Source: Paraspadella gotoi
Lineage: Eukaryota; Animalia; Chaetognatha
DNA length: 64,000 nucleotides
Direction: 5' to 3'
NCBI GenBank assembly: GCA_051294375.1
Contig: CM119267.1
Location: 6,534,367 to 6,598,366, forward strand
In this document: piece by piece, positions 1,623-62,004 of the stretch
How positions within the stretch are numbered: the stretch's first letter is position 1
How the letters are laid out: the number at the start of each line of letters is the position of its first letter
Translations under genes and position numbers: made by a program
Notes under the pieces: model-generated
Told to the model about the DNA's origin: nothing
The model's input: the letters and a program-made list of their open reading frames with translations, nothing else
The model's database searches: none

Positions 1623-7094
<5,472 letters not shown>

Positions 7095-10709: not shown

Positions 10710-10916
10710 TTTCAAAAACCCTAAAATTAAATATTTTTAATGATCGAACATGTTAAAAGCAAACATCCAAAATTTGCTTAATTAATATTAAGATATGTCT
10801 TTGATTAGAGTTAGTATATTTCAACTGATAAATTTGCACTCTTTAAACTGAGATGTTTTGATTCTAAGCCTTCTTCACCAAAACACGAGCTATTTTGCCC
10901 ATGACTTTGGTCAGGC

Positions 10917-11185
10917 TATAGTGGATTAAGTCCTCTAAGTATGTGCGTTTCTTGTACGAGTATTGGAGACTTAAAGCCGCTTTACCACCTAGTTATAAGT
11001 ACTATGCCGCAGCCGCTTTGTGACTAAGTGGGCTCACCCACCATTCCAACCGTGAATTCCAGGTTCAATACATGAGGCTTTTAGCTAATTTGCCAATTTA
11101 TTTCCTCCCGAGAACGGACCGCGACAGTGGTAGGTGGCGACCTGCTTAACGGGCATCACAAGAGATCCCCGCCGTTCCTAAATAC
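10917..11185 (+). mobile_element. GC-rich repeat-like insert with a tatagtggattaa start and B-box-like GGTTCAATAC
   Basis: Its start resembles the family 1 terminus. The segment caaccgtgaattccaggttcaat matches family 2 at 31618-31641. Confidence 0.4.
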
Positions 11186-12873: not shown

Positions 12874-15800
12874 TCAAGTATCTTCTTCGCTCGTTTCTAC
12901 GCTCTGTGATTTGCCGTTTTCTTCGTTCGGGGCGTCGTATTTTTTGAGAGTTTTTTCGATTATTTCGACACCCTTAGCCAGAGCGTCTCTCTGGCACTGA
13001 AGTACGTTAGTGAAAGCCGAAACTTTCGTTTGCTGCACGTGGAGATCAGCTGCAGAGGAAGTGTAAATATCATTTGTGAAAAATATACAGATTTGGAAAT
13101 CTGCATTGATACTTAGGAAAAACCAAGTTAAATTTGAATAAATTACCTAAAAGTTAAAAGAAACAAAGCAAACAAAGTTCCTCAAAACCTCACCCGCTGA
13201 TGCATCGTACGCCGCCTGCAAACGCTCCATCTCGATCGCGTCCTTACGGAGACTGTCTTGAAGCTCTTGCTTTCGATTCTTAACGATTTGAATCTCGGAC
13301 TCGGAGTTTTTGACGACCTCGTCCAAGGCACAGATGTCCGCCTCTACGTCCGCCAATTGTCCCGAAATTTTGTCCAGGTCTACGACGGAGCCACGAAATA
13401 CGACCAGAGTCGACGAAGACGACGACGTCGAAGGGTCGGCCAAGGGATTCGATAATACTTCCTCCACGTCTTGCATCGCCCCTGGAGAGGACCGACCTTC
13501 TTTTGAAACAAAAAAAGATACGTATTCAATAAACAGAAGAGTACATATAAAAACGAAATACGTGTAATTTCCGATTTACCTGGTCCGACATTTCGAGGGG
13601 CAGACTTTTCTTTCTCCTTCTCCTTTATTGACATCAACAAATCGACGTTTCCCATAACATCCGAACTAGACTCGGATTCCAAAACGTTAGCTTCTCCTTC
13701 GTATTTCCCGGTTATCGATTCGTAAATAATTTTATCTTTTTCCACGAAGTTTTTCGATACTTGCTTAATCTGACTCCTCGACAAGCTAAGGCCCAACGTT
13801 TCGAAGATGTCGGACAAATCTTTCTCGTAAAGGTAACCGCACCTGTTGAGATCGAAGTAGACGAAGGCGATAGCGAGCAGAGGATCCGCGCACTTTTCTT
13901 CGGGCGGCACTCGATCCTCTCCGCTAGATTTCAGAGTCAATTCTCTGTATATTTTAAGCCCGAAATCTCTCAACAACATCTCGTTGAATAACTCGGCAAA
14001 GAGAGATACTTCGAAGGAGCTCTCTTTCTGATCCTCGTGCCTGTAGTCAAGCAAGACGCTGAGAGACATCAAACTACAGTCGAATTTACCGCTTTTGGCC
14101 GTTTGGCTCGGATGAACTAAGAGTTGCGGAACGTGGGGCAAGTAATACATTTTTTCTAATCTTTGTACATCTTTATTTAATTGTATATCGTTTTGTAAAG
14201 AGGTTTTAAGATCTTCTTTATCGTGGTTCATTATCTCAGAGCCGAATTTTTCTCTTTCTCTGTCTTCCATTTCTCCGGCAATATCGTCTTGCTCCTGTTC
14301 AGCTTTGATCGCTTTTTGCATCTTGGCAATAAGGAGGGATTTGAGTCCAGTTTCGCTGACGTTTCGTAATCGCAACTGTTGCCGAAGCTCGCTTATTTTC
14401 ATCTTTTTCGGGTCTAATTCGGACCAGTGTTTCGGCTGTTCTCCGGGGCAATCCGCGGACGAATCCAAAGACGTCCCGACCGGGCCGGACGCCGCCTTTT
14501 CTATCGCCCTTTTTTGTAAAGTTTCTACCTTTTCATTTCCGATTTTTCGGTACGACGCAATAGTGCGTTCCCAAATTTCTTTATCGATCTCTGCGTTCCA
14601 AATATCGGGCAAAAACACAACAACGGTTTCCAAATGAGCGGGTATCACCGTTCCTTTATAGGTCTCCTCAGGGCGGTAATAATGCAACTGAACGAACTTG
14701 TACCACTTTTTGCAAAGGCTTAAGTCAATTCCGGTCAAAGCCTTGGTATTTCTAATCGCCGTCTTAACGAGGACCTTCGGATTGCCCAACGGGTCCAGGC
14801 CATCCAACGAAGGCGACCACGGCCCGCCGATGGCGGCAAGCTCATTCCTATTCTTGGTTCCGACCAAAAATTCCAGGCATCTGGTCGGGTGCTTGACGTC
14901 CTCCTTTTCTCGGCCGCTCGACAGTACTTTCTCGCAAAGCGCGTCGAACGTCGGCAGAGCCAGCAGCATAACTTTGGCGACGAACTCGTGATTGGCATCG
15001 GACGGATCAACGGCGCCCGAGCTGCTCGTCGGAGCCTCCGCGTCTTTCGAGAAGACGTTAAATCCTAAAGGCGTCTTTTTTTGAACCAAGGGAAAAGGAG
15101 AGTCGATTTCAAAGGCGGAGGACCAGGAGATTTGCGCGGAAATAAAATCGGACGGAATGTAAAGATTGGGATACCTCGCTCTCAAGGCAACCACATTAGC
15201 AATTTTAACCGCCGTAGAAATCTTGGGGATTTGAACGGAATAACGAGGCGAGGGTTTTACCCTACGTGGGGATCGCTCCTCCCTTTTCTCGTCCGACGGA
15301 CGGGGAGATCGAGAACGCGTTATATTACGAGATCTCCTCGCTTCGTCCGGCTCGTCTCTCTTTCCTTCCAAAGAACGATCCCTACGGCCGACGTCTCGCC
15401 TCTCTCGTTTCTCTCGCGGTCGACCCCTTGAGGCGTCCCCGCCCCTTCGATGGTCCAAACCCTCGTCTCGGGCCCTGTCGACCGCGAATCTCTCTCGTTT
15501 GCCGCCGTCCATCGCGTCACGAACCCAAGAATGCGACAATGACGAAGAAGACTGGGATCCGAATCCAGACGACTCTGTGTTGGATTGAACGGGAAGCGCT
15601 TGGACCCTGGAAGCGTTCCATTTGAAAGGCATGTTGTGATTGTATGACGCTTCGACAAGAACCTTGTCCCCAAGTTTGGGCCGCGGACCTTTAACCACGC
15701 TGTAGGAGAAGAAGACGTCGTCGTCGACGAAGCCGAACGAGTCGTGCAACTTCATCACGGAGCCCGTGAAGACGCGCTGTTTGTTGTTAGCGTTTTGAGC

Positions 15801-16256
15801 CTCGGTCCCGCGGGCAACGTTTTGACCCGCCACTGCTGGGGCAGGCTGGGACGAGCTTTGGAACTGAGGTCGAGGATAAGCCACGGGCTGGGCGATGAAC
15901 TGCGTTCTTTCTTTGTTAACGCTCGCCTCTAGTCCCAGTGGAGGCGCTTGGGCCGAGTTTCCCGGGAATCCCGCCAAGAACGAGTTACGGGGGGTGTGGT
16001 TTTGATTTCCCCCCGGGGCGGATGGCAGATTAAGCGGTGTCGAACCTGTTTGAGCGCTCGTCATCAACGGCGCTGGACCGAGAATGCCAGGGACGTGCTG
16101 TTGATGCTGCGGCGGCTGCATGATGGTGGAGCTGGTCAGAGGAAATCGTTGAGGGGGAAATCCACTCTCGAGAGTCGACTGGAACTGGCCGTGCGAAGTT
16201 TCCGGTTGAAGGGAAGGAGGATGCCAGTTGGTCGTCGCGAATGGAGGTTTGTCCAT
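12874..16256 (-). CDS. CCAR1: CCAR1/DBC1-family protein, copy B; 3 coding exons, ~1052 aa
   Basis: Exons 13580-16256, 13194-13499 and 12874-13049 are GT-AG and phase-compatible. Same domain order as copy A, plus an R/D/S-rich segment and HWSELDPKKMK before the SAP motif. Confidence 0.93.
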
Positions 16257-18000
16257 GTTTTCATTATTCAGAGTCAATTATAGCTGACAAGAAAATAAAT
16301 CCCTTGGCTTACAATTAGGAACAAAATAAAAATAACCAAGATACAATAAAAAGGTTCGGTTGTTTGTGCGAAGGGACGGGTATTTCTGAAACTTGTTTTG
16401 TACGTAAATATGTTTCATCCGCAGTACGTATTTTTTAACAAAGTGCACTAAACCTAAAGAGGGTAACAGCAAATTGAACAAATAAAGCAACCAGAAACTG
16501 AAAAATTCAAAATAAAAATTCTTTTATTGCTTTACATTGATGCTATTTGAAAGAGTAATGGAAGGAATGAAACTGGATAAAAAACTTTCCGAGACGATGT
16601 CTGCAGTTCCTTAGTAAGAAAATCACACCGCGAAACCCTCTTAAAATTATGTGAAAATGCAAAAACCAACCCCCTTTGGTATTTTTCGTTTTGGCTAAAT
16701 ATATCACAGTTCTCTGCAGAAGTCCTTTATTGGAGAAAAAGCCATAGTTTATGTAGACAAACATGCAAAATTGCAAATACCGTAGATATAGAGTTGGAAA
16801 ATTTGCAAGATTATAAGGAAAAATTTTATTAGTGAAAAGTAATTCCGAATTTTACTTACTTACTTAAAATTGTAGGTTTTATCATATTTTCCGGATATTA
16901 GAATTTTTTTCCTAGTAACCACAAATTTGCCAACACTTGGATTGTTGGCGCAAGTAAAAGTCAACAGTAACAGAACTGAAGTGTTTGTGCGGTTTTATAA
17001 CGCGGCGGCAAATAACTCAATCATTCAACATCCGCTGAAAATCGAAACATAGTAGCTCATTGAAGGAGAAGAGCGCCTTTTCATCTTATCTAAATATATA
17101 CAGATCCTAAAGTAGTAACGTATCAAACACACTTTCTTGAAACCTATTAAAAACTTTACAAAAAATATTTTAGATTCTGTAGAAAGAAAAATAAAATCCG
17201 GAAATAAATAAGTAATAATTAACTGAAACAAAAGGTGACGCTAATCATCCTCTCGCAAAAACTTCGGATGCTTCTAAACAGTTTGTTCCATGTCCAAAAC
17301 GAAAAATTCCATATTTGACGAAAAGGGATGTTTATCTTCAATACTATGTAAGGCAGGCACAATAAAAGAAAACCCTATATTGCGTGAAAGGACGTAAAAC
17401 TGGAAATTTACGATACGACGGCCACAATTTTTTTTTGAAGAATATGAGTATAATCTACACGAACGGATTGAACACAGCATGAATTTTTTTAAGTACTTAA
17501 TCAGATCTTATTTTGTTTATTAAACAATGCTCCAGTTTTTTCCGCCCTTCGGTCGAAACATTTTTTTTTAGATAAAATAAACCGAAACGTCCGCTTCTAA
17601 AAAAACAAACCCAGCAGTAATATATATGTAGCAAAACAATGGGTATGTAAAACTGGGAAGGTAAAAAAAATCCACACGAATGAGAAAGAATGAAAAAAAA
17701 AAACCGTGCTACTTATCCGTCAGAGGATACGCAATTACAGGGGGAAACATTTTCCCTGCGCTCTTCTGTTCTAGTGTAGTCGGGTATGAGTTTTAAGATC
17801 CAAAACAAACTCTTTCATCCCTTTAGCAATTTTCCCGCGTTGAGAGATCCTGACTACCTCAGGTATGGACACTCAACGAACGAAATAGGGAATGCAGATT
17901 TTTCCCCGTCCGCACAAAGTGAGTTTCAGACGAGAGACTAGCACTGGCGTTCCGAGGCGGGTGAACGTTTTAACCGAGAAGTGAGGGAGCGTTCCTCCAT

Positions 18001-21000
18001 TCAAACGGGTCCGGTGCGGTCGCCAGCGTCGGCGCCGGAGAGGGCGTGCTCGGTCATGCTCAAAGCTAAAGATTCCAGTCGAGTGTTAATGTCGCTGATC
18101 GCTTCCCCGGCGTGACCAGTCTCCGAAGGGCGAGGGACCGTTCCTGAATTTAAATAACTTAAAAATATGATTAAATAATGCAGTTGGTGGCGGTACGAAT
18201 AAAAAGACGAATGGACGTCATCAGCCTTGTCTCATGGCTCAGCGGGCGAGAGCACATCGTCTCAACAGTGCGTCCATTATGGAAGTGGTTAAAACGGACG
18301 GGTCCGCAGCCCCTCCGTCAGTTGGCGAGATAGAAACGCCACCGTTGCCGTAAGTTTTACTTTTACTTTAAACGTCTATAATGGAATAAACGCTGAAATG
18401 CATGTAATAATAAATGTATATTGTATAATGTATATTATATAATTGTATATCTCTCACTCTCTTTGGGTTGATTCGCTTCTCCAGGCGCCGACTGCGTTCT
18501 AGTCACGGCCGAGTGCGCGCTTTTGTCAAACGCGTTTTGACGCTGCATGAAGTTCCCGTTCGTGGAATTATTGCGACCCAGATGAGGAGGAGGCGGCTTG
18601 CAAAGCCCAACTTACAAATCAAATAGCACTTATTAACACAAAAATCTATGGAAGTGTCAAATGTTAAAAACATGTTACAAACTTACCGGGAGTAATCCAA
18701 GGTCCATCACCAGAGCTTAAATCACCATCGGGGGTCGAACATGTCGGGGAGGTCGATGAATCGTGACCTGGAAAAATTAGATTTAAAAATTCGAAGAGAA
18801 AAAGTTTTGTTAATTTTGTTTATTGCCACACAATATTTTAAATTGGGGAAAAAACGTACTGGTTTCGACTCTTTTTTGCCAAACATTTGATGGAGAGAGA
18901 GAGAGAGAAGTGAGAAAAAAAACAATGAGGACAGTTGAAGGAGAGTGAAGGGAAATAAAATTAGATTAGTTAAAGTAGGGTTGTCGTGACGTAATATCAC
19001 TACCCGTTGGATACAACGCTTCATCTCCGAACTCAATGGTCCTGGGTTCTAGCCCTGGTCAAAAAGACCTTGCAAAAGATTGACTGGCCGGATAAACCCC
19101 CTGTAGCAAGGCTACCGCCGGATCCGAAATTTCGGAAAGCAAGGCAACTGACGGAATAACCTCCCAGACCCACTGGCCCAGTGGGCACACTGAGTGTAGG
19201 GGCTATCCACACCGTCAGAGAGGCACGGCGACCCTCTCTCTTCTTGGCCAGTGACCAATGGTCACTTCATGGTGAGGATAATATTAGGAAAGCATTACAT
19301 TTGGTTAATGTACAACAATAAGTCGAAACAAGACATTAACAATAAGTTTATGTCCAACATGTACACTTTTCCAAAACAAATCGTTGTTTGTTAACAGATA
19401 CAATATCAAAAAAGAACCAAATCAAAGCAATCGTCAAGCACCAGTTCACATACACGTGCGATCTCTTCGTCAATCCTAGGTTTTTAATAATTATAAACAA
19501 AATAAAATTTTAAATTGTAAGCCAACCCAGGTCGCCCCTATTTACCAAACGACAACTTTCCAACGGAAATCAAAGAATTCTTCAGCGAGAAAGGATTCTG
19601 AGAGGATACGTTTTGAAGAGGAGGCGCCGAAGGTGGAGGCGCACCCAAAGACCGCGAGACCGGCATGGATTGGTTCTCGACCGGGGTCATCAGCAGAGGG
19701 TGGGAGGATCCGCGATTCATCAGCGCCGCCGCTGCCGCCGCCGCCGCGTAATTCGTTTGTGGAAGACCTGAATAAAAATAGTGAAAGAACGGAGAGTTAA
19801 ATGGTACAAACTTGGCCAGCATATAAAATTATGTATATGGAATAGTACGATCATGAATTACGGAAATATATAATACAATTAAAAGGAAAAATCTCACCGG
19901 CGGCAGCAACGGCTGCGAACGCGGCGGCCGTTTGCGGACTGGAAACAGCGGAGGCGTAGAATGAAGGATGCGGGTGAGAGTTGAGCAGCGAGCGCGATCC
20001 CGAGGTGGGCGTGGAGGCTTGACTACTGGAGGCGAAAGACGGAGCAGCCGTCAAGGGCGACGAAAGGGGCGGCAACGAATCAGTGGAAGACTCCGTCGAT
20101 GGAATCGAGGAGTAGGTGCTGAATAGCGAACGCGGCAAAAAAAAAAAGAAAGTTACTTTAAAAATGTATATTACCTTTAAATCATTATCGTTACATAAAT
20201 TACACCATCGGCACCTAGAATGCCTGAATGCCCAGTTGGGTCGATGGTTTTTGGAGAGATCGCCGCGTCTATGCGAGACTCCCATCGGACGCCAGATCTT
20301 CATGATTTGTTGCTTCCAAGAGTTCAATCGTTTTTTCTGTGGAGATTATCGGCGAAAAAGGGGGGAAGAGTAAGCAAGCCGCAATTCGCGGGTATTCAAG
20401 GCCCCACTCAGTCGTCATTCGCCAACCTGAGTATTATTGAAAGCTTCGTGGTTGAGCGTTTTGTCCAGAAGAGACAAGTAAGTTCCGATGCCCTCCTCGT
20501 CGGGCCTGCCCGGGGAAACGAGAAGCTGCGTGCAGGCCTTTCCCAACACGCGGGTGATTAACGACGGAAGATCCATATCGTCGGGGGAAGAGTGAAGTCC
20601 GCCGTCCGCTATTGTTTATGGGATGAAGCAGAAAAAGCTTCGAATTTATCATAACTGCAAAAAAAAAAAAAAAAAAAAGTAACTTACCGGACGGAGACGT
20701 GGGTGGCGTCACCGCTTCAACGCCGTTGGAACGTCTCTCTTTTCCAGAGTCGCTCGCATCGTTGCTATCATTGACGCCTTTGTTTGTTTCCGGCGATTTG
20801 AGGACGCCGCCATTGTCATCATTACTTGATGTTGTTGCCGTTTCTGAAAAGCGAAAAAAATGGATGCGGAATAAATCGAAACCAAGTCGTATGTAGTAAA
20901 TACATAAATAGTGTAGTGAAATCAAGGAAGGACATTTTTAAACTACTCTTTTTACCAGCTTTTTCGTAGAATTTAATCGGCGAAGCGATGATGAGCTTTA

Positions 21001-24000
21001 AGTCGTTGAAGGCCTGACGCAATGGCTTCCCTTCCACGATGTCCGTCTCGATTTGGCGCAGTTGTCCAGGCCGTTCTCGCAACTTAGAGATGCTCAGACA
21101 AATCTTGTGGCGCGCGCCTTTAGAACAGATTTCTTAATTTAATTTGAGTGGCTTGTCGCGGTCGATGAGCAAATAAACAAACGGTTACCTTTGGTAACGC
21201 CTTGATTTTCCAGTTGCTCTTCGTTGAGGTTGAGCATCTGCTCGTAATCGAGTTGAGAAAAGAGATGTGCGTATCTGAGAAACGCAAAACGAGTAAATGA
21301 AAATAAACATTTTTTTCGGGTCATTAAAAAAAACCATTGGAGGTATTTACTTATGCAATCTCAAACTCTTCAACCAGGAGGGAACGTCCCTCATTCCGCT
21401 CATGTGGTCCGAAAATGAGTTTCGGCCACCGGCCGTGTTCCGTCCCAAGCTTTCGAAGTCTCCGCCGTCGGAGGACGCCACGCTGCTCTGAGGCGAGAGC
21501 GGGGCGTGGCGTGGCGCGACGAAGCCACCGCCACCGCGTAGCAACGACGATCCGTCAAAGGAATCTGTATGCAAATGTAGGGTACACAATGTAATGCGCG
21601 TCTTCATTTTCCGACGTTTTTTAAAGGATACAGAGTGTCTCGAGCGTACTGTGACTTTACAAATGAACGCTGTGTCAAATTGGTAAGGAAAATTATCAAT
21701 TTGATAGAACCACCAGAAAGATAAGTTTATACAGTTTTTTTGGTATCTATATTATCTATATTATCATGTTTATTTGTATTTTTATAAACAAAATGCAAAT
21801 TTCAAATGAAGGGAAATTTTGTTTTGAGCGTCGATCAAACAATTTTGGTGATATCAAATTTATAAATTAGTCCTGCTTTTGGTGAAAAATATAATTGTGC
21901 ATATTATATTATAGTAGGCTACTGAAGAGACAGCTACAATGTTTATTGTGCCCTTGACCAAGAATTTTGTGAAATTGAAATGCTTGACGATGATGATAAC
22001 GATTTCAGAAGAGAAGATTCAAAAAATTTGTTTTTTTAGACGCTCATTAAGTTTACCTTCAGGAAACTGATAAACGCTACAAATTTAGTATCCTATGATT
22101 CAGCATATGATGTACATAAATACAGAGTACATTCTGCCGCTAAAACTATTTTCCAGCTGACTGCAGCTCATAAGCATTGCTAATATAATTGGCTCTGTCA
22201 AACCAGCTGCATGTCTGTAACAGTCTTTCAATTAAAACCAATCAAATATTCTCAAATCCGAAAGGACAATGGTCAAATTCTGTCAGGAAAGGCCTGTGAC
22301 CATCACTTTACCACAGCTGAAAAAAAATCTTTTAGGTAGTTGGAAAGATTTGAATATTTTAAAATTTTTTCGTCATTGCCTTTAAGTGCTGATAAAATGT
22401 TATATAATTGTTTGACTTTAAAAATAAAATCAGCGGCCATTGGTTCCGGAGGCAAGTCATTCGCCTCCCAACCCAAAGGTCCAGGGTTCTAGCCCGGTGG
22501 TCGCTTAGCACGGGGCGCTTAACCCGCCTGTAACACGGTGTTACAGCCTGATCCAAAGCTCAGGGACTGCTTATATTGAACGGTTCTGTCACTTATATAA
22601 CAACAATAATTACTGTCTCTTCAACATCATATAAAACTAAGAACTTCTGGATCCAACGAGTACAGTAAATGCATTTTTTATAACTGTACTGACTCACTGT
22701 ATTCATTTGCAAAGTGACAGTATACTTGAGATACTCTGTAGATATTTAAAATTATTTTCATGTTTCTCAGACGTTTTTTTCATAAACTAAATTTGCTTAC
22801 AGGCAGACAGTAATTTGATTACTGTTTTTTGTTGAGCGAATTAGTGATTAATAATAAATTCATTTAGCTTTTAGGGTAGTAAATAAGCCTATTTAACAAT
22901 ATAAAACGTCCATCACTACTGCAAATATTTATAGTAGAACTAGTTTTAAATAGTGAAATAAATTTATATTTTTAATAATTTTTTTCTATTCTTGTATTAA
23001 TATTAAGTAAAATTAATTTATCGTTTTAATTATTACACCTGTTTCGGTGGGAAAGGAATTGGACCGCGTGCAGCGGGACAGGGCGGCGTTGTTGCCGTTG
23101 GTAGCGGCGGTGGACGACGGCGGAGCGGCAAGGCGCTGCGCCAGGTTAGTCATAGTCGCCGTCGACGGCAGTTCATCTTGAATTGACGATTGAGAACTGA
23201 AAGGAGGCCATTCGTCCTGGAGGATTTTTGATGAATGTAATGTGATAAATGCAATGTATTTAGGTCCAAACAGAATTTTACAATGGAAATATCCCCGACG
23301 AAATCGTACCTAGATAGGGAATCGGGAGTCGGGACAGCTTACTTGAAACTGTGGGCTCGTCGGCGTGGATGAGGGCGGCGTGAGCGAGTTGCTTCTTTGC
23401 CTTTGCCGCCGGCCGATGGGCGGGAAGTCGTCCGCGTCGAAGCGGTCGCTCGTCTCGTCGCTCTGCAGTGACTGAGAAAAGAAAGATCGGCGCGATCCTC
23501 CGAGCGGCGTTGCCGACGAGCAATAACCGGCGTCGTGGCCGGCCACGGCCGACGCCGGTGGGATCTGGGCGCCCGGCTCGGCGAAGGTGAAGTGCCGATG
23601 GCTCGACCCGCTGTGAGAGAAGGAGTCGGCCGACAACGGACCTTTCAGGGGTAAAGCGTTAGATTACACACCAAAGATGAACTATAAACAATCTATGGTG
23701 GACTAAAATCCACCAACCGTTTATCAGTGGCCATTGGTGCCGGAGGCAAGTCATTCGCCTCCCAACCCAAAGGTCCGGGGTTCTAACCCGGTGGTCGCCT
23801 AGCAGTTAAGAGGGACGGGGCGCTTAACCCGCCTGTAACATGGTGTTACAGCCTGATCCGAAGCTCAGGGACTGCTTATATTGAACGGTTCTGTCACTAA
23901 CACAACAATAATTACTGTCTCTTCAAATCTAAAATAAAAAATATAATATTAAATAACAGTTGAAAAAATAAACTAACATTATTCAATTTATATTCAAAAT

Positions 24001-26351
24001 AAAGGATAAATAAAATTAATTTCCTTAGTATGTATCCATATCAGAAGATAAGATTCTTCCTAGTAGACTTACCCCCGAGGAAAACTAACAATCAGGAAAG
24101 AAAGAATAGAAAAGAAAGAAAGAAGCAGAGGCAGCCAGAAAAATAGAAAGAAATCAAAAGGCATCAGCAGAAGCAGCAGGAAAAAAGAGAGAAAAAGAAA
24201 GAAAGCCCCTGCAAAGCCCAAATCGTTTTCGAATCAGCAGAAGCAGCTGCAGATTCTTTTTTTTTCCTGATGAATCACGACTGGGGAAAAGAGAGAGAGA
24301 GAGAGAGCTACATATAATTAAAAGAGAAAAGAGAGAGAGAAAGAGACATAAAAATAAAAGTATTTAATAACTGTCCTCACCCAAGGACCTCGATGATGAG
24401 AAGCTGTATATAAATTTTCAGCTTCATACACCTAAATTTAATCATCAAAAAGGCTATCTATAAATTAGAACGACGACGACGACACTTATGCGCAAAAGTG
24501 TTACGAGATCGTCGCAAACGCAAAGCGATTGCGACGATAAAAAAAATATCGTTACCCCCAAGCCCGCTGGAGTCGTGGTCGAATGAGGATCGCTCAGAAG
24601 CCGACCAGGGAGTTCCTCCGCACGACTCTAATGGATGCAGACCAGCAACATCCGGGAGCGGGGCGTCCAACTCGCTCGTCGACTGACTGTTCAAGCCCGC
24701 CGAAGACTCGGAGGGGCAGTCCATCGAGAAACCGTGCAGCGGAGACTGAGACACTTGATTTTGAGATGGATTTAATTGGACCTTCTCTTCGATGTGGCGC
24801 AACCTCGAGAAACACAGATTCAAGTGAGAAAATCATTCTAGTGTTACTAAGTTAGTCACTTCACTAGTGAACTTACAAACTATATAAGTAAAATTAATGT
24901 CTAGATTTTGGATCGCGACTATTACCAAAGGGCTAACGAAGATCGTTCTTCGGGTGACATGGCGGGATGTATTAAAGAATAGGACAAAAGTTGCCGGCAG
25001 GCTTCCAAGGAAACCAAATGGCTCGCCAGCGCCGTTGTCGACGCCAAGGAATACGTCGTCAACGCCTGTTGATTATTGGAGATCGAAATTAGAAATAGGT
25101 TGAGGGGGAATGCCTGGTGACCATTTTACATGACGTCAACCTTGAAAATTCCTTTACAGCCTAAATTTGTTTTGTAGTTGCTAATGTTAATGGGTATTAG
25201 TCACTAATCTGTGGTGAGCTTGTATACGTACTGCAGACTAAATTTTTATAATTTGTTTCTTTTTATTAAGTGGACGAAATAAGCCAAACCTGAGGGAGAA
25301 CTTGCGGGAGTAAATTCAAATAAATAGCTTTGGCATCTTGATTTCCGGGTTTAAGTAAAGGTAACAATTGAAGAAGTTCTTCTAAAATGTCAAGCGTGCT
25401 GCAAAAACCGCAACCTACGTAGGAGACGCTGGATAAGATTCGCTTTAAGCAAAACGCTGAGCATAATTCGGATTTACCTTGACCATTATTGCAACAATTG
25501 CAAGATTGAGTAGTCATGGAAGTGCATTGATTGATTATGTGACATGGACAACCGGTCGAAAATTCGTTAGAAGTTGTAGCCGAGCATGTAATAGATAGCC
25601 GATCGTTTAAACTTGATAGATAGGCTGAGAGAAAACAGTGGGTTTAAAAATACAATTATTCTTGGTTAAGTTAAGCAGTTAAAAGAGTCCACTGACAATA
25701 ATATTTTCTAAGAGCTGGATTCTTGACTAAGGTAATTAAATCCTCTTTCACGGGAAGAAAGGTAAAGAAACATGCAAATTTTAGTAACAGTCAGCATAAG
25801 AGGATACATAAATAATTTTTCCTTTTCGAATAAAATTCAAAACGCCCACTTAATCAAGTCCCAACCTGTGTTGTTAGCTTGTTGCTCCAAAAATGACAGA
25901 TCCATCTCTCCTTGTGGTAATAAAGGCCCTTGTTGAAGGACATGATAAAGGAATTTTGCTTGAATAGGTGGTAATCGTTTCAGTAGCGAGTACAGCGCAA
26001 CAGTTTGCTCGCATGGATTCCAGGACAAAAACCAATTCCCTGAAACAATTTAAAAATAAATCAAAATACACACGGTACAATTAGGTACATTCTCGACATA
26101 AATGTCTACCAGCCCTAACCTAAGGCGTTGACCTGGTCCCGGAAAACGATGGTGGACCCCGAAGACATCGATTTGCTCTGTCCGTCGTATCGAAGTTGAT
26201 TTCCTCCCAATTCCGAAACGCAAAATCCCGACTGCGACGAGTCGTTGGTTGGAAAATGATCGGAGACGACGCCTCCGTGCGTCGCGTCCACGGAGGGTAA
26301 GTGTTTCGGACTCAAAAAGGGTGATTCCGCGGACTTGATCTGAGTATTCAT
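18001..26351 (-). CDS. smg: Smaug / SAMD4 translational repressor, ~18 exons, ~1100 aa
   Basis: Exons 26120-26351, 25866-26039, 25290-25624, 24926-25065, 24556-24803, 23343-23641, 23039-23216, 21351-21564, 21189-21274, 20956-21117, 20688-20843, 20427-20608, 20215-20336, 19898-20118, 19546-19767, 18687-18767, 18458-18610, 18001-18143. Motifs: [24 protein letters not shown]; LPLLKPGN; [12 protein letters not shown]; SAM domain [13 protein letters not shown]...GVTKGARHKI; PHAT region [14 protein letters not shown]; C-terminal [17 protein letters not shown]. Boundaries of the low-complexity exons are less certain. Confidence 0.93.
18990..19280 (+). mobile_element. Family 4 tRNA-headed repeat with a degenerate twister (19068-19144)
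   Basis: B-box-like GGTTCTAGCCC, then P5 CCTTGC/GCAAGG enclosing GA-CTG..TAA-ACC..P3..CCGGA-TCCGAAAT-TTCGG-A. Boundaries are approximate. Confidence 0.55.
21631..22738. mobile_element. Non-autonomous Tc1/mariner-type element
   Basis: Imperfect ~37-bp TIRs (cagagtgtctcgagcgtactgtgactttacaaatgaa / ttcatttgcaaagtgacagtatacttgagatactctg), flanked by TA on both sides. Confidence 0.75.
22429..22622 (+). mobile_element. Family 1 repeat, 5'-truncated, ribozyme core deleted
   Basis: Lacks the 5' hairpin and the 11 nt gttaagaggga. L4 reads TCCAAAGC. Confidence 0.85.
23694..23924 (+). mobile_element. 231-bp tRNA-headed, twister-bearing repeat (family 1), full length, in a Smaug intron
   Basis: Near-identical to 30927-31157 and 36311-36543. 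It has a 5' hairpin GGTGGA-CTAAAA-TCCACC, a tRNA-like head with B-box-like GGTTCTAACCC, then the twister fold. Flanks are caatc/aaatc. Confidence 0.9.
23802..23875 (+). ncRNA. Twister ribozyme, type P5 (candidate)
   Basis: P5 GCAG/CTGC; GA followed by CGG pairs with L4 U-CCG-AAGC (T1); U^AA at 23825/23826; GC-GC T2; P3 CTGTAAC/GTTACAG; P4 CCTGA/TCAGG. P2 has a bulge and P1 is minimal. Confidence 0.75.
24085..24545. repeat. Copy of the (GA)n-associated repeat family in a Smaug intron
   Basis: Colinear with 3685-4125. Confidence 0.75.
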
Positions 26352-27505
26352 GGCGATTACAATTTGGAGGAAGAGAGGCCCGAGCACGAATTATCCAGAG
26401 CGCCGCTCATCCGAAGGAAGTTCCGAGGAGTAAGGTTCGACGGCTTAAATTTTGATTAGGCATTTTTTAACAATTTTGGGTTTATTGCCTCGGGCGAAGC
26501 TTGAACCGTAGGTCCTTAATTTTTTTACTCGGATCAGTTTTGATTTTCTTTAGCAATTTTTTTGGACCCGAGGGTTCTTTTGATTTTCATCATTAACCAA
26601 GTACGTTTGAAATTCGGCAGATTAAAGAAGTCATTTTACAAAAAAAAAAAGCTTTAAAAAACAAACAAAAAAGTGTTCGGGTGTATAATTGAAAAAAATT
26701 GGGTACGAGATAGAATATTTCGCAAGATAAAAATATCAAAAGAAAAACACATTCGCTAAAAAGGTAACAAGTAAACGTAGAAATATATTTTATATTGGTT
26801 GTACCAATTTCATATAAACTAAAAATCATAAAAACCCTCATACAGAGCAGGGAAAGCCTTGCCTAAACATTCGAAGGAGCTAACATATTATTACTATAGA
26901 AGCCAGAATATTAAATATGATGAACACCTCCACCATTTTCCCCTCTTTTAAAATGTTAACTTTAACAGTTAACCGAATTTAGAGAGAAGTTTTTATGATT
27001 AATTTGCTTAATGTACGCTCCCTCTTTCGAAGATAATCACAAAACGAATTATAATTGTGTAGTGTACGTACGAACATTATGGGTTGTTGGGAAGCTTTTA
27101 TTATGCATAACATTTCTCCAGATTAGTAGAGAAAACTCGAGATTTATATTATAGTCAAGTCATCATATCATATAATTTCAATTTACATAATTCCTATACT
27201 GCCCATTTTCTTGGTTTTAATTTCTTATAACATTCATATTCTCCATTAAAAAGTGTAATCTATTCAATTTCATAAAAATTTTAAATCTTAAGAACCAAGT
27301 GTACTGGTCCGAAAAAAAAGCGACGAAACTAGCACAATAGTTTCAAAATTTAAAATTAATGACACGGTTAAAATTATATTTTCCGCCGTTTTATCATAGA
27401 GGAATTGTAATATGTAATGCTGGAAGACATAAGATAACCTTCTATTCCTTTGAAATAATAATATATTAAAAAAAATCTCTAAAAGATTATTCTCTCGTGT
27501 AGTAA

Positions 27506-29339
27506 TCAAATTTTATTCGCGTTGTAACAACAAAGCAGACTCCTCTTCAAAAGAAATCTGGTCAGAGAGTGATCAGTGACAAATATCAAAAAACTGGAAA
27601 TACAATTGAGCGAAGACAAAATGGACGTCAAACAAACAATGTTTTGAGCCAACGACGGGTCACTGATTCCGCCTTCGATCAAATCCCTGGCCGTCGATTT
27701 GAACACGTCGAACACGTCGAGATGACCAACTTTAAGATACAGAGATGTGGTTAATACGAAAATCACGGAAACGACCAACAAGTAAATGAGCAATTTTTTG
27801 ACGCAAGTTTTGGTGAAAAGGATTCGTTTGGACGAGTCGTGAAACGAGGGGCGGACGACGAGGGCGCTTCGGTTGGAATCCTTGGAATCGAGTCCGCCCT
27901 TGAGCGCATGCAGTTCCGAATCGTCGGCAACGGCTCGATCCGCGGCGTTCGTTGCCAGGGATTTTAACGAAATCACGCAAAAGGCGGCGCTGAAGGCGAT
28001 CAAGAGCAATGGGAGCCAGAAACGCAGCGACAACTTTGACCAAACCTAAGACGAAAGAAAAATGTCGAAGTTTCTGTTTCTATGAGTTTCTCTGATTGAA
28101 AAGGCGTAAGTTGGACAATGGACAATATCCATTGGGCATACCTGATAGCGCGCTTCGACGAGATTTTCGTGGACGAAATCCAACATCATGTCCCCGCCCG
28201 GCGAAGTTAGAAGATGATGCTGGAAAAGGACGAATGAGGGCAGTGAGAGGAGACCGCTTAGAGCCAGTATTCCGGCGACGATAACAGGAGCCGCTCGGGT
28301 GCCAGCGGGAAAGCCGTTCAGTCCGGCGCAGCTGCTCGCTTGGTCGAGACCCAGGGCTACGGTGATCCAAGCTGAATAGGCAAGGGAATCGGGCATGGAT
28401 TATAGATAAAGGGGTCGATATTACTTGACGGTCATGTGAAGGAAACAAGATCGTGAATTCGATTTATACTTAGAATGTCGGTTATATGTAAACGCGTCAA
28501 ACTCACCGGACGCTAGGCAAGCGACGTCGAGTATCGAAAAAGACGCCATGGCTAGAATGAGGTGAAAAAGCGGGGCGGCGTTGAAGAATGGCGAATGGAA
28601 GGGAAAGACGGAAAAGGCCCGGGTCACCAGGATCACCGTGTCCAGCACGAGGCTCGTCTCTAGGTATAACTGGAATCAAAGTTTACAATTACAACCCATT
28701 TACCATCGTCATCATTAGGGAAAAAAAATATTAGAAACAGGCTGCGGCACAATTTAGCAAGAAACGATACAATTTACTTTTACATCAAATTTTAGGGTTT
28801 TTCGCGCGCCACTGTTATCTATGTACTTAATAACGCCAAAACCTCTGACTTCACATTCTCCAGGTACTCCATTGAACCACCCTGGTGGTGTAAACTGCCC
28901 AGTAAAAATTTGTTACAACTCGCAACTCTGCTCTCACCCTCGTCGAAGCCAGATCGACCAGCACGAGATTTTCGGCCTGGGTTCCGCATGACTTCCTCGC
29001 CAGAGAGCTTTTCCTGAGCAAAACGACGAAATACGAATTGGCTAAAAGGCCAAAGACGAGACAAGCGCCGAGAACGACGAGCTCGGTGAGGGGCAGGGCG
29101 GATTCGAAAGGAGTCGCAGGGACGGCGGATGGAAAGGCGACGGTCGTGCTTCGCCCGGGAGGTGAGTCCGTCGATGGAATTACGCTTTGGAGCGAGCCGC
29201 TATCGCCGAACCCCGAATCGTTGAGCGAATGAACGGAGAGTGCCGAGGGCGTGTCGTCGGATCCCCAGGATGCGACGCCCATAGTAAAGACCGTTTCGAG
29301 CGTCGAGGCGCACACTATGCAGGAGAAGACGCTCTTCAT
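27506..29339 (-). CDS. Divergent 7TM receptor, rhodopsin-class (peptide-receptor/srw-like), 4 exons, ~444 aa
   Basis: Exons 28938-29339, 28507-28669, 28142-28371 and 27506-28045 are in phase. The protein has an S/T-rich N-terminus and about seven hydrophobic segments: GLLAN (TM1), SAWITVALGLDQ (TM3), SLPSF (TM4), FWLPLLLI (TM5), SSLNCISSFLIF (TM7). Confidence 0.65.
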
Positions 29340-30926
29340 CGTCTTAGCGCAGGGATGCCGATTTTCGGTAAGTTATTGGCGTTAAGGTAACAGTTCGAGA
29401 GGGAAAAAATGAGGTTCTCATCCTTAGGGGGAAAAAAAAACCAAACGAAACTTAGTCGTTGTTATCGTTTTCGGTGATCAACAGCAGTGCGGACTGCGGA
29501 CCATCAAAATAATAGAATGAAAATAATAAGGCATTATTTAAATTTGCGATTGATTCGCCGGCGCATGATCTTTTTAAAATCTAAAATAAGCATCCATGAC
29601 TAAGATGGAGAATCGTGCTCAGAGAGTGGACACCACTTAAGATAGAAAATACTAATGTTCACTTGTTCCACGGGAGAAAAAAAAAGACAAAATCCCGAAA
29701 ACACCGAACATGCTCGTACTAAATTGTTATAATACGCAATGATGCCTATAGGCTATACCATTATTCAATGCTTCCCCATCCCAGTTCAGTTAACATTTCC
29801 CCACAAAGGAAATTTATTTATGTATCTGACTTTATGTTTGGGAATTTATCATAAGTAAAGCCGTTAATTATAATGATTTTGATACACGACGAAATGCTTA
29901 AATACTAACAAAATTAATATTTCAAACACAATTGTATTATATAGAGTTCGACACATGTACACAACGCAGTGCGACGCTTTAATTCCCTCGTTTGCTCCCT
30001 TTACTAACGTTAACATGCATGGATGATGGGGAAATGGATATCAAGGAATGACCCGACTTGGAGACGTAGCGCAAACGAGCCATTTCCGCTTGAATCTGTT
30101 CCTGACGCTCATAATGAATAAGCATGTGTTTTCTGTTTAATAAAAAAAATTGTGACACCGGGAGAATGGTTGGGTTTTTAAAATAGGGATATAATGGTAC
30201 TCGATTCGCATAAGAGCATAATTTTTACATTTGTCGACTGGGGTTAAGGGGTTTAGTGTAAAGGGTGTTTTAAGTTTAATAAATAATAATTTATAATTTT
30301 AATAATAAAATTTTTAAATAATATTTCAAATAGGCGAAAATCTCAGTCGGAAAAAGTAAAATTATACTCGGATTAGTATTAATATTATAAATTTAGAAGG
30401 TTGAACTCTTAAGCATCGCTACATAAATGAGTAGCGGTAGACGATCAAATTCAAATTTTAATGAGAACAACATGAAACAAATCCATTATTGGTATTAGTC
30501 ATTGTGTTAAAATATTTTTTTCTGATAGAGCTTAAAAAGTTAAGCAAAAAATGTAATTACAACTTTTGACAATTTTAATGTTTTACCATGATGGAAAAAA
30601 AAATATTCGCGGTTTGGAAAAGTCGGTAAATTTCATTGTCAAATATATTTTTTGGTCGGTAAATAAGTTTTAATATGTAATATGACCTCCCTAGGACTGA
30701 ATAAAAAGATTATTTCTAAACAGCATAAAATTATTTAATACAATCAAATACTTCCAAAAGAGGTTATCTCCAACTGTTTTCACCTCTTTTTGATCAAGAG
30801 GACTACTCACATTATTGTTAATATTATATCTTTGGCATAATATTTTTTATCAAATTTAGGGCAAAAAAAGGTCCTTGGCAAGCATTGAAAAAGATTGATC
30901 CCCTATAAAGTAAACAGTGTTAAAAG

Positions 30927-31157
30927 TATGGTGGACTAAAATCCACCAACCGTTCATCAGTGGCCATTGGTGCCGGAGGCTAGTCATTCGCCTCCCAACC
31001 CAAAGGTCCGGGGTTCTAGCCCGGTGGTCGCCTGGCAGTTAAGAGGGACGGGGCGCTTAACCCGCCTGTAACATGGTGTTACAGCCTGATCCGAAGCTCA
31101 GGGACTGCTTATATTGAACGGTTCTGTCACTAACACAACAATAATTACTGTCTCTCC
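30927..31157 (+). mobile_element. Family 1 repeat, full length; twister at 31035-31108
   Basis: Same 231-bp element, with a perfect 5-bp TSD aaaag at 30922-30926 and 31158-31162. Confidence 0.9.
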
Positions 31158-31576
31158 AAAAGTATGTTTTAGTAAAAATGAAACCAAAACAGTAACTTAC
31201 TCGAAACTTACCTGCTTACTTCAAATTATTTAAACCAAAATACAATGTACACCTTGCCAAAAGCATTGTTATACTATAAATGAGTATTTCCAAAAAATAT
31301 TTTTAACTGTTATGTCTTAGAATGAGATTAAATAATAAGTTTTCAAACATTTTTCTGCCAAACCGCGCGGAGAAAATCGAGCAGTTGCCTTTGCTGCATC
31401 AAAAAAAGCAGTATATTAAAGAATTTCAAAAATATTAAAATATCGTCTAAAAGCTAAGAGAGTCTTATACAAATATTTATTCAGATTTTAAAAATAATTA
31501 AGAGTTTTAGAGTAATGATTTTTTAAATTTTGTCTCTATATATGGTCCCACCGCTGTAGTATAAATGAAAAGTGTA

Positions 31577-31856
31577 GATAGTGGCGAATCCTGAATTCGC
31601 CTCCCGTATATAGTTCACCAACCGTGAGTTCCGGGTTCAATCCCCTCACGGTCACACTGGTTAAAGTGTGATGTGTCGGAATAAACACGCCAGTGACATG
31701 GGGTGGTCACTGCAGGTCCAAAGCCCTGAGCGCCAGCTGTCGGGAGATGCCTCACACCCCAGGTATCACACATGTCCCTCCGTTGCCATAAGTGGTGAGC
31801 CCTACTATCGAACACGCAACCGCTGCGTACCGTCGCTCACGTCGTCGCTTAAATAA
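31577..31856 (+). mobile_element. Family 2 GC-rich repeat with a B-box head and a twister fold
   Basis: GC-rich island in AT-rich DNA, with a 5' hairpin GGCGAAT..ATTCGCC and a B-box GGTTCAATCCC. Boundaries are approximate. Confidence 0.6.
31657..31736 (+). ncRNA. Twister ribozyme, type P5 (candidate)
   Basis: P5 CTGGT/GCCAG; P2 GTGT/ACAC; GA; U^AA at 31682/31683; GC; P3 CAGTGAC/GTCACTG; P4 CAGG/CCTG; L4 UCCAAAGC; conserved A after P4. One T1 mismatch (TGT vs CCA). Confidence 0.75.
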
Positions 31857-32756
31857 AACATAAAAAAATGAGTGTAGCAATATGAAACATATTATTCTAA
31901 AAGATCTTGATGATGAGAAGCTATATCTAAATTTTTAGCTTCTTATGTTTATATACTTTTACAATTTCTAATTATAAAAAAGCGTAACGACGATAACGAT
32001 AACGACAACAAAGACTACGATGGCACCAACAAGCAATACTAAACGATTATATCGCGGGCTTAAGCCCGTCTGGCGAGATAAAAAAATAAACCTGAAAATG
32101 AAGGTGAATCGGAGATAAGCGATGCTCGTGATGATGCCCAACAAAATAACAGTAACCACAACGGTTACGATATATGCAAATGGATGGATAGGTCGATACA
32201 CTTTTCCAAGAGATTCAATCGCGAATTCCGTGGACAATTCGCAGAAACTTACTTGAGGGTCGACAACGCGAACTGCAATGACAAAAGAAAATGGAATATC
32301 TGTATTTACCATAAAAATCCAAAGTCACTTCCTGAACAGAAGAATCTCATCACCATGACGCGTAGAAACAACTCGACAAACTGAAACCATGGATCATGGT
32401 TTCAGTTTGTCGATACGTAATACGTGATACGTAATACCATTTAGAGGTTAATTTTACTTTCGCCGACCGGGGTTAGAGGGGGGTTGTAGGGTTAGGGGTA
32501 AGTAATATTAATTAAAAAATAAACATTTTTAAGTAATTTTTCAAAAAACCGTTGGCGAAAGTAAAATTTTACCCAAAGTAGTTATCAACTTTTTATTATT
32601 ACCCCCTCCGCTCCAGATGTATAAACTAAATTAAATTAACCATTTGACACAAAAGCATCGTAACCCTCGCAAACCTTGGATAATTGCGAAAGTCAAAATT
32701 TATACAAGAAACAAGAAATGTGAATTTATGTTAGTAAAAAATAAAAACAATGAAAC

Positions 32757-35300
32757 CTACATCATGTAAAATATGTCTTGCCTGCGCACCGACTTACCTT
32801 TAAAAAAAAAAAATCCATTGTATTGTGAACAAAATATTAGCATATTACCCTGCTTTGAGCCCAAAATTACGTAATCGCTTTCATCATTGACGGAAGAAAG
32901 GTCATAACTAAAAATAATATTGTTGGATTTTATACATACAGAGCTTCAATTACGGAGCTTCAATTTTTTTCTATTTATTTTTTAGTTACTATAATTACTC
33001 GCATAAAACTTTTTTTACGGTCTTGCTGCAAGGAATTTTGTACTGGCGGCACTTGTCACAAGGAACATACTTATCAAAAAATATATGATGCCATTCTTCA
33101 CGAGGAATAATAGGGCGACTTTTGAAAGCTATTCTCCTGACCTAAAAAAATCGACTTATCAGACCTTATCATTTTAGTCATAACCATTTCGATTTTTCAT
33201 GACTTACATCTCCCCACGTTAGGACTCGTCGATCGCATTCGAAGTCTTCCGTTTTAAAATAAGCAAAACGATCATTATTTTCTGTTTCCATGACGACAAA
33301 ATCCTGTTAGCAAAGTAAAATTTTTTAAAAAAATTTTATGTTAAAAATCATTTTAATTTTAGGTGATACTAGAAAGTAAATAAATTGTCAAATTAAGTAC
33401 GGAGACTCTAAATATGCCCAACAAACATTCCACATGGCGGGAAAACAAATATATTTGCATCAAAATATTTTGACCTTATTCAGAAACTTACTTCCGTGAG
33501 AGGACGATAGTATTTGTCTCCAACGAAGAGCCACAGATTCGGAAAGAAAGCTTCTTTTGCATCTACTGCTCTAACGCAACCCCACTTGTCCTGGTTCCAT
33601 GACTTCTCATGATTAACTTTTGAACCATTTTCCAACTTTAAACTGTACTTAATTCGCCGAATTCCATGACAAATGGGAAATCGATTGAATTCCGGCGCTG
33701 ATCTGCAAACAAGCATAAGTTCGGCTCTGTTTAAGTTTTTGGGTTTTAAAGCTGAACTTGGCAATTGAGGAATGACTAATGAGGGAATGATTAAATGAAC
33801 AATTTTAAAAATATAAAATTTAAAATAAGTAAGTCGAAAATATACGAAAACCTGTGAATCGGCTTGGGGTTCCATTCAATGCGAATTTCAACTTTTGGGT
33901 TGTTATTAGCGTCCAAAGGGCAACCTGGAAATGGAATGTACGCAACTGTCACAGCTCGTTTTAATAAAAAATCAGATTGAGATTAAAGACGTCGTTATTA
34001 TTATTTTAATAGTAAGAAATTTGTCCTTAACTGATATATATGAAAGGCAAAAAACATACCTCGTTCAATCAATCTATTTTTATATCCTCCATTTAGGCAC
34101 TTTTCAGAGACTTCATTAACAACCATTTCTGACCTAATATAAAATGAATATAAAGGCGAGGAGAAGACAGAAATATAGTAATGAATTCAATCGTCCTTAA
34201 TAGTCCCTCATCTTTGGATCAGGCTGTAGCCCAAGCTTCGGTAAGTCAAGCGCCCCGTCCCACTAACTGCTAGGCGACCACTGGGCTACAACCGCTAAGT
34301 GCGCTAAGTGGGCCTGAAGAGTACTATCTGAACTTATGCAATGCCCGACTACATGCCCCCAGATTGTTACCCACCCTGCACTGCTTCCAGTGGAGGGAGG
34401 GGAGCAATCTTCAGCAAATCCATGGGCCTGGAATCAGAAGGTTGGAATACGCTCGACAGGATGGGCTCAACAGAGTGGATAAGACGCTAAGTGGGGCTGA
34501 AGAGTACTATCCACAACTTCATTAACCCCCTCTAGCAGCCATGGAACGGGTCCTGGGCTTTGAACCAGGCTTGAGGGTTTTCCACGCCCCAAGGCGGCTT
34601 ACGACCATTCTCATGCTTCCGGCAGGGTAGGTACCGAGTTCAATCTCATGATGGCTTTACTCAATGAGCCACCGGGTCACGACTGTAGGTGTCATGCTTA
34701 TAGGCAGGGTGAACTTATGCAATGCCCGACTACATGCCCCCAGATTGTTACCCACCCTGCACTGCTTCCAGTGGAGGGAGGGGAGCAATCTTCAGCAAAT
34801 CCATGGGCCTGGAATCAGAAGGTTGGAATACGCTCGACAGGATGGGCTCAACAGAGTGGATAAGACGCTAAGTGGGGCTGAAGAGTACTATCCACAACTT
34901 CATTAACCCCCTCTAGCAGCCATGGAACGGGTCCTGGGCTTTGAACCAGGCTTGAGGGTTTTCCACGCCCCCCCAAGGCGGCTTACGACCATTCTCATGC
35001 TTCCGGCAGGGTAGGTACCGAGTTCAATCTCATGATGGCTTTACTCAATGAGCCACCGGGTCACGACTGTAGGTGTCATGCTTATAGGCGGGGTGAACTT
35101 ATGCAATGCCCGACTACAGACTTTCCTCCGGGTCTGTTTGATGGATTTTAATCCAACATAACGATCAATGTTAATATTGATATCAATAAAGACAACTCAA
35201 CGACCAACTTTAATATTTACTTATGTAGAGAATAAAAAGCGAAAAAACAAAGCGTTCACTTGATCGGAACTTCGATTCGAACGATGCGCAGCCCTACCAT
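32757..35300 (-). CDS. Unannotated 8-exon gene, ~255 aa, no family recognised
   Basis: Exons 35260-35300, 34060-34133, 33852-33954, 33492-33702, 33208-33303, 32999-33141, 32849-32907 and 32757-32797 join with GT-AG sites into a stop-free 768-nt frame. The terminal exons are uncertain. Confidence 0.7.
34330..35160 (-). repeat. Tandem array of a ~381-bp GC-rich monomer (family 3) with a degenerate twister-like fold
   Basis: Units start at 34330, 34711 and 35095 (partial); the two full units are nearly identical. A diverged partial copy lies at ~60998-61202 (+), and a family 1 fragment at 34202-34292. Confidence 0.85.
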
Positions 35301-36310: not shown

Positions 36311-36543
36311 GAAGAGACAGTGATAACTGTTATGTGTTAGTGACAGAACCGTTCAATATAAGCAGTCCCTGAGCTTCGGATCAGGCTGTAACACCATGTT
36401 ACAGGCGGGTTAAGCGCCCCGTCCCTCTTAACTGCCAGACGACCACCGGGCTAGAACCCCGGACCTTTGGGTTGGGAGGCGAATGTCTTGCCTCCGGCAC
36501 CAATGGCCGCTGATGAACGATTGGTGGATTTTAGTCCACTATA
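36311..36543 (-). mobile_element. Family 1 repeat, full length; twister at 36362-36435
   Basis: Reverse-complement copy with a perfect 5-bp TSD gtgct at 36306-36310 and 36544-36548. Confidence 0.9.
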
Positions 36544-52035: not shown

Positions 52036-52061
52036 ATTATTATATTTTATTTATTTTATTA

Positions 52062-61973: not shown

Positions 61974-62004
<31 letters not shown>

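Follow-up and report, generated by a model that had tools for sequence, protein, structure and literature searches.

Tandem and solitary modules with a tRNA-like head and a predicted type-P5 twister, candidate parts of small retrozymes in Paraspadella gotoi

We analysed a window of 64,000 nucleotides (nt) of AT-rich animal DNA from the chaetognath Paraspadella gotoi (contig CM119267.1, positions 6,534,367–6,598,366), in which four families of short repeats, A to D, carry a tRNA-like head followed by the layout of a twister ribozyme. Modules of 230–240 nt have fixed ends, lie between short direct repeats and are built of leader, head, twister layout and short tail. Tentatively, and with confidence a little short of even, we read these repeats as the modules, resembling long terminal repeats (LTRs), of small non-autonomous retrozymes, in which a tRNA-like promoter, probably for RNA polymerase III (Pol III), would be joined to a predicted type-P5 twister that would cut mainly as a pair. 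Family A runs in the order leader hairpin, 8-base-pair (bp) outer stem, tRNA-like head, twister and short tail ending CTCTTCA:

23694–23925 (+), family A element, 230–232 nt, from TA-TGG on the left to CTCTTCA on the right; the Logan contigs show sharp boundaries at 23694 and 23925/6
23690–23695 (+), left flanking direct repeat, 6 bp if the element starts TG, 4 bp if TA belongs to the element
23926–23931 (+), right flanking direct repeat
23696–23715 (+), 5′ leader hairpin of 7 bp, lying ahead of where Pol III is expected to start
23716–23889 (+), outer 8-bp stem around head and ribozyme (strands 23716–23723 and 23882–23889; computed fold)
23727–23798 (+), tRNA-like head, 72 nt; 7-bp acceptor-like stem, A-box-like 23735–23746, T arm with B box 23779–23789
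23802–23875 (+), type-P5 twister-like ribozyme, with G23814 as the predicted general base and the cut predicted between U23825 and A23826; L4 23857–23864
23819–23824 (+), P1 segment; one G-U pair and a self-complementary tetraloop; predicted 6-bp duplex between two copies

Further copies of family A lie elsewhere in the window:

30927–31158 (+), copy 98% identical; intact ribozyme 31035–31108; own direct repeat
36310–36543 (−), copy 94% identical; intact ribozyme 36435–36362; direct repeat 5/6
51637–52036 (+), copy with its interior lost in an assembly gap; both ends and direct repeat present
22429–22623 (+), copy without leader and without the ribozyme's P5/P2/GA strand
34202–34293 (−), decayed fragment at the end of the family C array, to which it is fused

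Evidence on the elements beyond the window comes from Logan contigs of the same organism (run X1 and a second contig set, X9, which may derive from RNA); two small sets, from organism B (X10, 2 contigs) and a biofilm metagenome (X11, 1 contig), contained 3′ pieces only, at a depth below 10, and were set aside. Family A is present in 16,142 contigs of X1 at a summed depth of 3–5 million, compared with about 200 in the flank; summed contig depth does not equal copy number, and we take the family to have thousands of copies. An earlier note on this DNA, made from its letters, had proposed high-copy, non-coding mobile families, and this is supported. Nor did we see any sign that the family is merely the 5′ untranslated region of a long interspersed element: both ends are sharp in the contigs, with no common sequence beyond them among the loose-end rows listed, and reverse transcriptase, endonuclease and integrase families are absent among the 114 open reading frames (ORFs) of at least 75 amino acids in the window. 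The majority letter in contigs at 23722 turns a G-U of the outer stem into C-G.

The ribozyme motif at 23802–23875 is letter-identical in the copies at 31035 (+) and 36435–36362 (−), as the earlier note had written it. In these three intact copies the GA (23814–15), the UAA (23825–27) and L4 (23857–64) are present, the pseudoknots pair in full (T1 3/3, T2 2/2), and P3, P4 and P5 have 8, 5 and 4 bp; P2 has 3 bp with one bulge. This pairing of the core features supports the identification of the family A ribozyme as a type-P5 twister with a predicted cut at U23825/A23826, as proposed before. The catalytic numbering (G23814, U23825/A23826) is by analogy to the rice twister. Family A copies retain both halves of the ribozyme and do not start at the predicted cut site; variant positions in their contigs number 3/41 in the ribozyme core (all at CpG) and 21/101 in head plus tail, a weak hint only.

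Families B, C and D repeat the layout:

31613–31790 (+), family B; B-box head, its 5′ part replaced in this copy; twister 31656–31737 with 4-bp P2; fixed right end CCA-TA
34735–35118 (−), family C unit 1; head-plus-twister module of about 240 nt ending CTCTTCA, and a 144-nt spacer; twister about 35007–34927
34354–34734 (−), family C unit 2, head-to-tail joint CA/TG; module 34734–34498; twister 34623–34546; spacer 34497–34354
34302–34353 (−), third C module, internally deleted, with the start of the spacer
61000–61202 (+), single decayed C module, 80% identical; twister 61111–61189; the catalytic G position reads A
19025–19144 (+), family D, a decayed relative of A; B box 19045; twister layout 19068–19144 with 6-bp P5

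Family C is thus a 237–240-nt module, with the same CTCTTCA end as A, plus a 144-nt spacer, arranged module–spacer–module in units of 381–384 nt. Its spacer (34354–34497) may have 11-bp terminal inverted repeats in other copies, seen at one contig joint, and a long stem or an inserted miniature inverted-repeat transposable element is possible there. Just upstream of family B, at 31541–31558, a separate repeat ends in a CTG-TA terminus that we presume to be Tc1/mariner-like, and further repeats lie at 31800–32080.

The recurrence of the layout in these families had been noted before, and it stands, although their window copies are decayed. The U^A site, the G of GA and L4 (U-NNN-AAGC) are present in the 3/3 intact A copies, in B and in both tandem C copies; the twister letters are damaged in the copy at 61112, where GA is lost (at 61122), and in D, where the end of L4 is changed. 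T1 pairs at 2/3, 1/3, 2/3 and 2/3 positions in the window copies of B, C and D, and T2 at 0/2 in D. P2 is a bulged 3 bp in A, C and D and 4 bp in B, and P2, P4 and P5 stand in the P5-permuted order throughout. The families had also been called unrelated; D is in fact akin to A (70% identity over 110 nt, E 2e-6).

For B and C, the letters needed for real twisters were fixed first and the contigs were then aligned to 31480–34740, the variant letters being those among the variant rows listed. In C, the majority letters at 34614, 34609, 34607, 34604 and 34561 (96–98% of X1 depth, and the same in X9) restore P2 and T1 (3/3) and turn the P1 segment into a perfect palindrome. For B, T1 becomes complete with an extra G after 31672, found in 47 contigs, but these make up 11% of the local depth, and that depth drops steeply at the indel; P5 and P1 are lengthened by the majority letters at 31656 and 31680. 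The T1 sequences differ between families yet pair (CCG/CGG in A, UCC/GGA in C, CCA/UGG in B), and it is mainly because three families have different but pairing T1 helices that we regard the fold as a selected twister.

A strict twister descriptor, derived from the earlier note's own description, matched the window at 6 sites, where 200 block shuffles averaged 0.085. All 6 are among the 8 sites named earlier; the descriptor missed 61112 and 19068, and its two family C matches used the wrong upstream GA. A pattern anchored on the B box gave 3 matches, compared with 0 in 100 shuffles. A relaxed scoring scan was too loose, with hundreds of background sites at 25–28 of 31 where A reaches 31, and D did not rise above background.

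Matches to the head-plus-twister pattern in three viral-contig and two metagenome-contig stretches were rejected: all five lie behind ordinary tRNA genes and are without twister helices, and we therefore attribute them to chance, leaving no relative of the elements outside the organism among the viral and metagenome contigs searched with this pattern. The viral contigs L001–L003, unrelated chance matches, carry a phage tRNA cluster with a manA-like RNA just below the Rfam cut-off (53.6 versus 55.2 bits). A hammerhead reading of the CTGAAGAG motif at module ends was ruled out, there being no GAAA strand, as was, by eye, a twister-like stretch without L4 on the opposite strand of the C spacer.

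The tRNA-like head claimed earlier stands on A and B boxes, a 7-bp acceptor-like stem and a T arm; neither ARAGORN, which found 0 tRNA genes in the window, nor Rfam called it, and both tandem C copies carry the B-box stretch in inverted orientation. The B box is exact in A, B and D, and in majority contigs the C B box is in sense orientation. At 34628–34648, unlike in those contigs, the B-box segment of both tandem C units lies inverted between short inverted arms; given this inversion, the tandem array may be promoter-dead. A different tRNA-derived repeat, also with a B box, occurs twice, at 43200–43300 (−) and 58540–58640 (−), with no twister descriptor match behind it, and a decayed family-B-like B-box head at 11046–11069 (+) has no recognisable ribozyme downstream.

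The leader before the head measures 31–33 nt in A and about 60 nt in C, and starts about 40 nt (A) or 60 nt (C) before the A box. A leader 40–60 nt upstream of the A box is too far away to be part of a copy's own Pol III transcript. Because a monomer's own transcript could not supply the leader, a plain short interspersed element (SINE) is unlikely, and a two-module template or a route through DNA would be needed. A SINE shape also fits poorly with the absence of an A-rich or repeated 3′ tail and with flanking repeats of fixed length.

In the P1 segment, T1 and the cut site are separated by no more than 6 nt in A, C and D and, counting the added G, by 8 nt in B, so that an intramolecular P1 allows 1–2 bp and a tetraloop, and a full duplex can form only between two copies, where P1 could reach 6–8 bp. 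The inner tetraloops are all self-complementary: GCGC in A, GGCC in the C majority, UCGG in B and CCGG in D. By pair probabilities each would be so by chance at about 0.14, although the families share ancestry and are not fully independent. For A, the computed self-duplex of the segment is worth −8.3 kcal/mol, against about +3.9 to close a 1-bp hairpin. Axolotl hammerheads with one bp under a palindromic tetraloop cut far better as dimers (PMC7229834). By this analogy the twister would likely cut mainly as a pair of copies.

Flanking direct repeats accompany all four full A copies in the window (6/6, 6/6, 5/6 and 6/6; chance 0.0007–0.008 each). They can be read in two ways, as 6 bp around an element with TG..CA ends or as 4 bp around an element starting TA. 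TA precedes the 4-mer in 2/4 copies, and the 4-bp reading with a symmetric target preference may also fit. The C module runs TG..CA, as does A, or TA..CA, depending on the reading of the junction. The far end of the C array is rearranged, which makes its target duplication unreadable. An integrase-type cut is suggested by ends that are fixed on either side and by repeats of constant length.

It is because the leader needs a two-module template or a DNA route, and because ends and repeats point to an integrase-type cut, that we favour LTR-like modules of a Pol III retrozyme. Pol III would start at the head of one module, meet no run of four Ts and continue into the next; a sense-strand T4 is absent from 7/7 stretches tested, which lends this weak support. 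A lone RNA would cut poorly, as its P1 has only 1–2 bp under a self-complementary tetraloop; in a transcript of two modules, the P1 segments would pair, exchange halves and cut both U^A sites to yield a unit-length RNA. By comparison with hammerhead retrozymes, a host ligase could then circularise this RNA, and a borrowed reverse transcriptase crossing the joint would rebuild leader, promoter and intact ribozyme. An integrase-type staggered cut would insert the DNA, and most genomic copies would be solo modules; in the contigs, the C module has a depth of 0.9–1.9 million and the spacer 0.07–0.23 million. We also consider, as possible but doubtful, a natural 'double twister': a type-P5 ribozyme that swaps domains and works only as a dimer, by which several Pol III retrozyme families would distinguish transcripts of two-module sources from those of single copies. 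They would then be the first retrozymes based on a twister and perhaps the first LTR-type mini-elements of animals to carry a ribozyme.

Several results weigh against the LTR-like reading. Rfam was run over the whole window at gathering thresholds, with 0 hits, and by E-value over 18000–37500, 23690–23930, 23795–23882 and 31600–31800; the twister models left family A undetected even at E ≤ 10, so the covariance-model check set beforehand in the earlier note gave nothing for A, and for B only a match of twister-P1 to the 3′ half (20.8 bits against a 67.2-bit cut-off). The ribozyme segments also fold with weak z-scores, −2.1 in A and between −1.6 and +0.5 in the rest. Type-P1 twisters tolerate imperfections in P1 and P2, and P1 is cited as dispensable (PMC11662667), which means that monomers may cut well by themselves and that a dimer step may not be needed. 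For A we found neither an internal region nor a tandem: 4/4 full window copies are single, and no head-to-tail joint occurs among the 15 of 57 joints listed. The only head-to-tail units of 150–450 nt seen are those of the one C array (381–384 nt), and depth at its spacer–module joint is low (2,468 at 34355). The C spacer starts without a TGG primer-binding site, and its purine tract is short, with a brief run of G ahead of the next module. On the left side of A, and there only, TA is near-universal; at +5/+6 on the right it occurs in 2/3 loose-end consensus rows of X9 and 0/2 of X1, which leaves 4 versus 6 bp unsettled.

The alternative that survives best, though we consider it unlikely, is a non-LTR retrozyme like Sm-alpha, as we take the SINE-like elements of Schistosoma to be named: the same cycle of Pol III and dimeric twister would end in target-primed reverse transcription by a Penelope-like element, possibly of Naiad type, with tandem arrays as sources and dispersed monomers as products. 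The one-sided TA fits such an asymmetric mechanism, and minimal hammerheads that we presume to be of Penelope type occur in the window. Animal retrozymes are tandem units of 170–400 nt with duplications longer than 4 bp and a Penelope-like link (PMC7229834; bioRxiv 10.64898/2026.07.22.740005), and the C array, with its 381–384-nt units and partial third, looks alike. Penelope-like insertions, however, are often 5′ truncated and partial tandems (PMC8557442), whereas A has both ends fixed and exactly one module; no Penelope ORF is found among the 114 window ORFs, and 12 exact motifs gave no informative match to element or twister in the Naiad/Chlamys supplement (one 10-mer match was at chance level).

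Movement as DNA, by a DDE transposase of IS3EU or GingerRoot type or by a recombinase, with the promoter–ribozyme cassette a passenger on a non-autonomous transposon, strikes us as improbable. IS3EU has TA..TA ends and usually 6-bp duplications, and GingerRoot sometimes TG..CA with 6 bp (PMC10045372); A matches TG..CA with 6 bp and not TA..TA, and an autonomous partner was not found among the window ORFs. A TATGG-type end is shared by the left of A and the right of B, the cassette being oppositely oriented to it, and CryptonS termini are TATGG with 5–6-bp direct repeats, but CryptonS is described from oomycetes and a diatom (PMC3212892). A lacks a terminal inverted repeat beyond two letters, and an intact ribozyme with covarying pseudoknots in several families implies selection at an RNA stage.

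We give little credence to an unusual SINE whose uncut monomer RNA is copied directly, the weak P1 keeping the ribozyme slow so that it only trims or limits transcripts: dispersed single copies with a whole ribozyme and a tRNA-like head do dominate, but 30–60 nt of leader precede the head, an A-rich or repeated tail is absent, and repeat length is the same in 4/4 copies. Least probable of all is a twister-derived fold that no longer cuts and serves, for example, as a signal for a helper's enzyme, which would suit the lack of an Rfam hit for A, the bulged 3-bp P2 of A, C and D and the near absence of P1, but not the retention, in most A and C copies, of the catalytic G, U^AA, L4 and both pseudoknots, parts reported to be sensitive in twisters (PMC11662667).

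Elsewhere, the window carries two neighbouring CCAR1/DBC1-family genes, at 7506–10736 (−) and 13380–16277 (−), each mostly one unbroken ORF of about 1000 codons, with the Pfam domains DBC1, S1-like, LAIKA and SAP. The CCAR1-like protein has 43–51% matches across many animal phyla; none of the 120 hits listed, out of 748, is a close relative. Complex local repeats at 56700–63300 and 2850–3450 mix (GA)n runs with a conserved 47–62-nt unit and 18-nt tandem units. A minimal type I hammerhead with a palindromic stem III, presumably the form associated with Penelope-like elements, occurs at 39309–39355 (+) and 37805–37760 (−), inverted and 1.5 kb apart inside an inverted duplication; both were missed by Rfam at gathering, and a decayed look-alike lies near 2805–2840 (+).

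Compared with known systems, the ribozyme shares with type-P5 twisters (Rfam clan CL00120) the strand order, GA, U^AA, L4, T1, T2, P3, P4 and P5, and differs in a P1 of 1–2 bp with a palindromic loop, a bulged 3-bp P2 in three families and the lack of a model hit for A. With SINE2 elements the repeats have tRNA-derived A and B boxes in common, but the head is not at the 5′ end, there is no tail and repeat length is constant in 4/4 copies. Twisters are known at the 5′ ends of RTE elements (PMC8501958; PMC7761336). The T-variants of the Perere-3 RTE are likewise reduced-P1 twisters in an animal retroelement; there the cut forms the 5′ end of the element and an ORF follows, whereas here the predicted cut lies mid-element, behind the promoter, and both sides are retained (PMC8501958).

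Helenus/TRIMp3 elements, in the accessible account, have a tRNA-like sequence after a leader in an LTR of 120–320 nt, solo LTRs, tandem arrays and a short internal region, and their animal duplications of 4 bp equal one reading of the A junctions; that text describes no ribozyme, the word occurring once, in a reference (PMC10886601). The common topology of leader and tRNA-like head within a module speaks for the LTR-like reading. None of six motifs (element families and twister loops) was found in the Helenus consensus file, in which line breaks can hide a motif (PMC10886601). In plant LTR retrozymes, the available text describes a ribozyme in each LTR, a unit RNA cut between LTRs and a circle copied by a borrowed reverse transcriptase and integrated, a course that is only proposed for the elements here; theirs is a type III hammerhead, with 4-bp duplications and a tRNA-Met primer-binding site, and that text mentions no tRNA-like internal promoter (PMC7761336).

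Animal non-LTR retrozymes are similarly non-coding units of a few hundred nt, tandem and dispersed, and the axolotl ones share the dimer design of 1 bp under a palindromic tetraloop, but they are defined by type I hammerheads and their circles are demonstrated, whereas for the present elements circles are only proposed (PMC7229834; bioRxiv 10.64898/2026.07.22.740005). The words 'twister' and 'tRNA' have 0 occurrences in the available main text of the latter. The earlier note regarded a Pol III promoter followed by a self-cleaving ribozyme as a paradox; the combination is already in print for Sm-alpha, where a Pol III promoter precedes a self-cleaving hammerhead and the separation of the promoter by cleavage is solved by tandem transcripts (PMC6765202). 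Against that hammerhead stand here a twister layout, mostly single modules, fixed ends and short fixed flanking repeats.

No hammerhead core match occurs inside any element unit, and the elements, while on our reading they work like retrozymes, fall outside that class as defined. We found no report of a tRNA-headed twister element, a twister retrozyme or a dimeric twister in the openly accessible literature. So far the hammerhead has been the defining ribozyme of retrozymes, and twisters have few known biological roles. If our reading is true, a twister in the hammerhead's slot, with the same design of weak helix plus palindrome, would represent convergence on one mobile-RNA strategy, and a natural dimer-gated twister could be tested as a 74-nt transcript; the elements would also form a link between tRNA-promoter LTR elements such as Helenus and the retrozymes. 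As Rfam does not detect these variants, families like them may have gone unnoticed in other invertebrate genomes.

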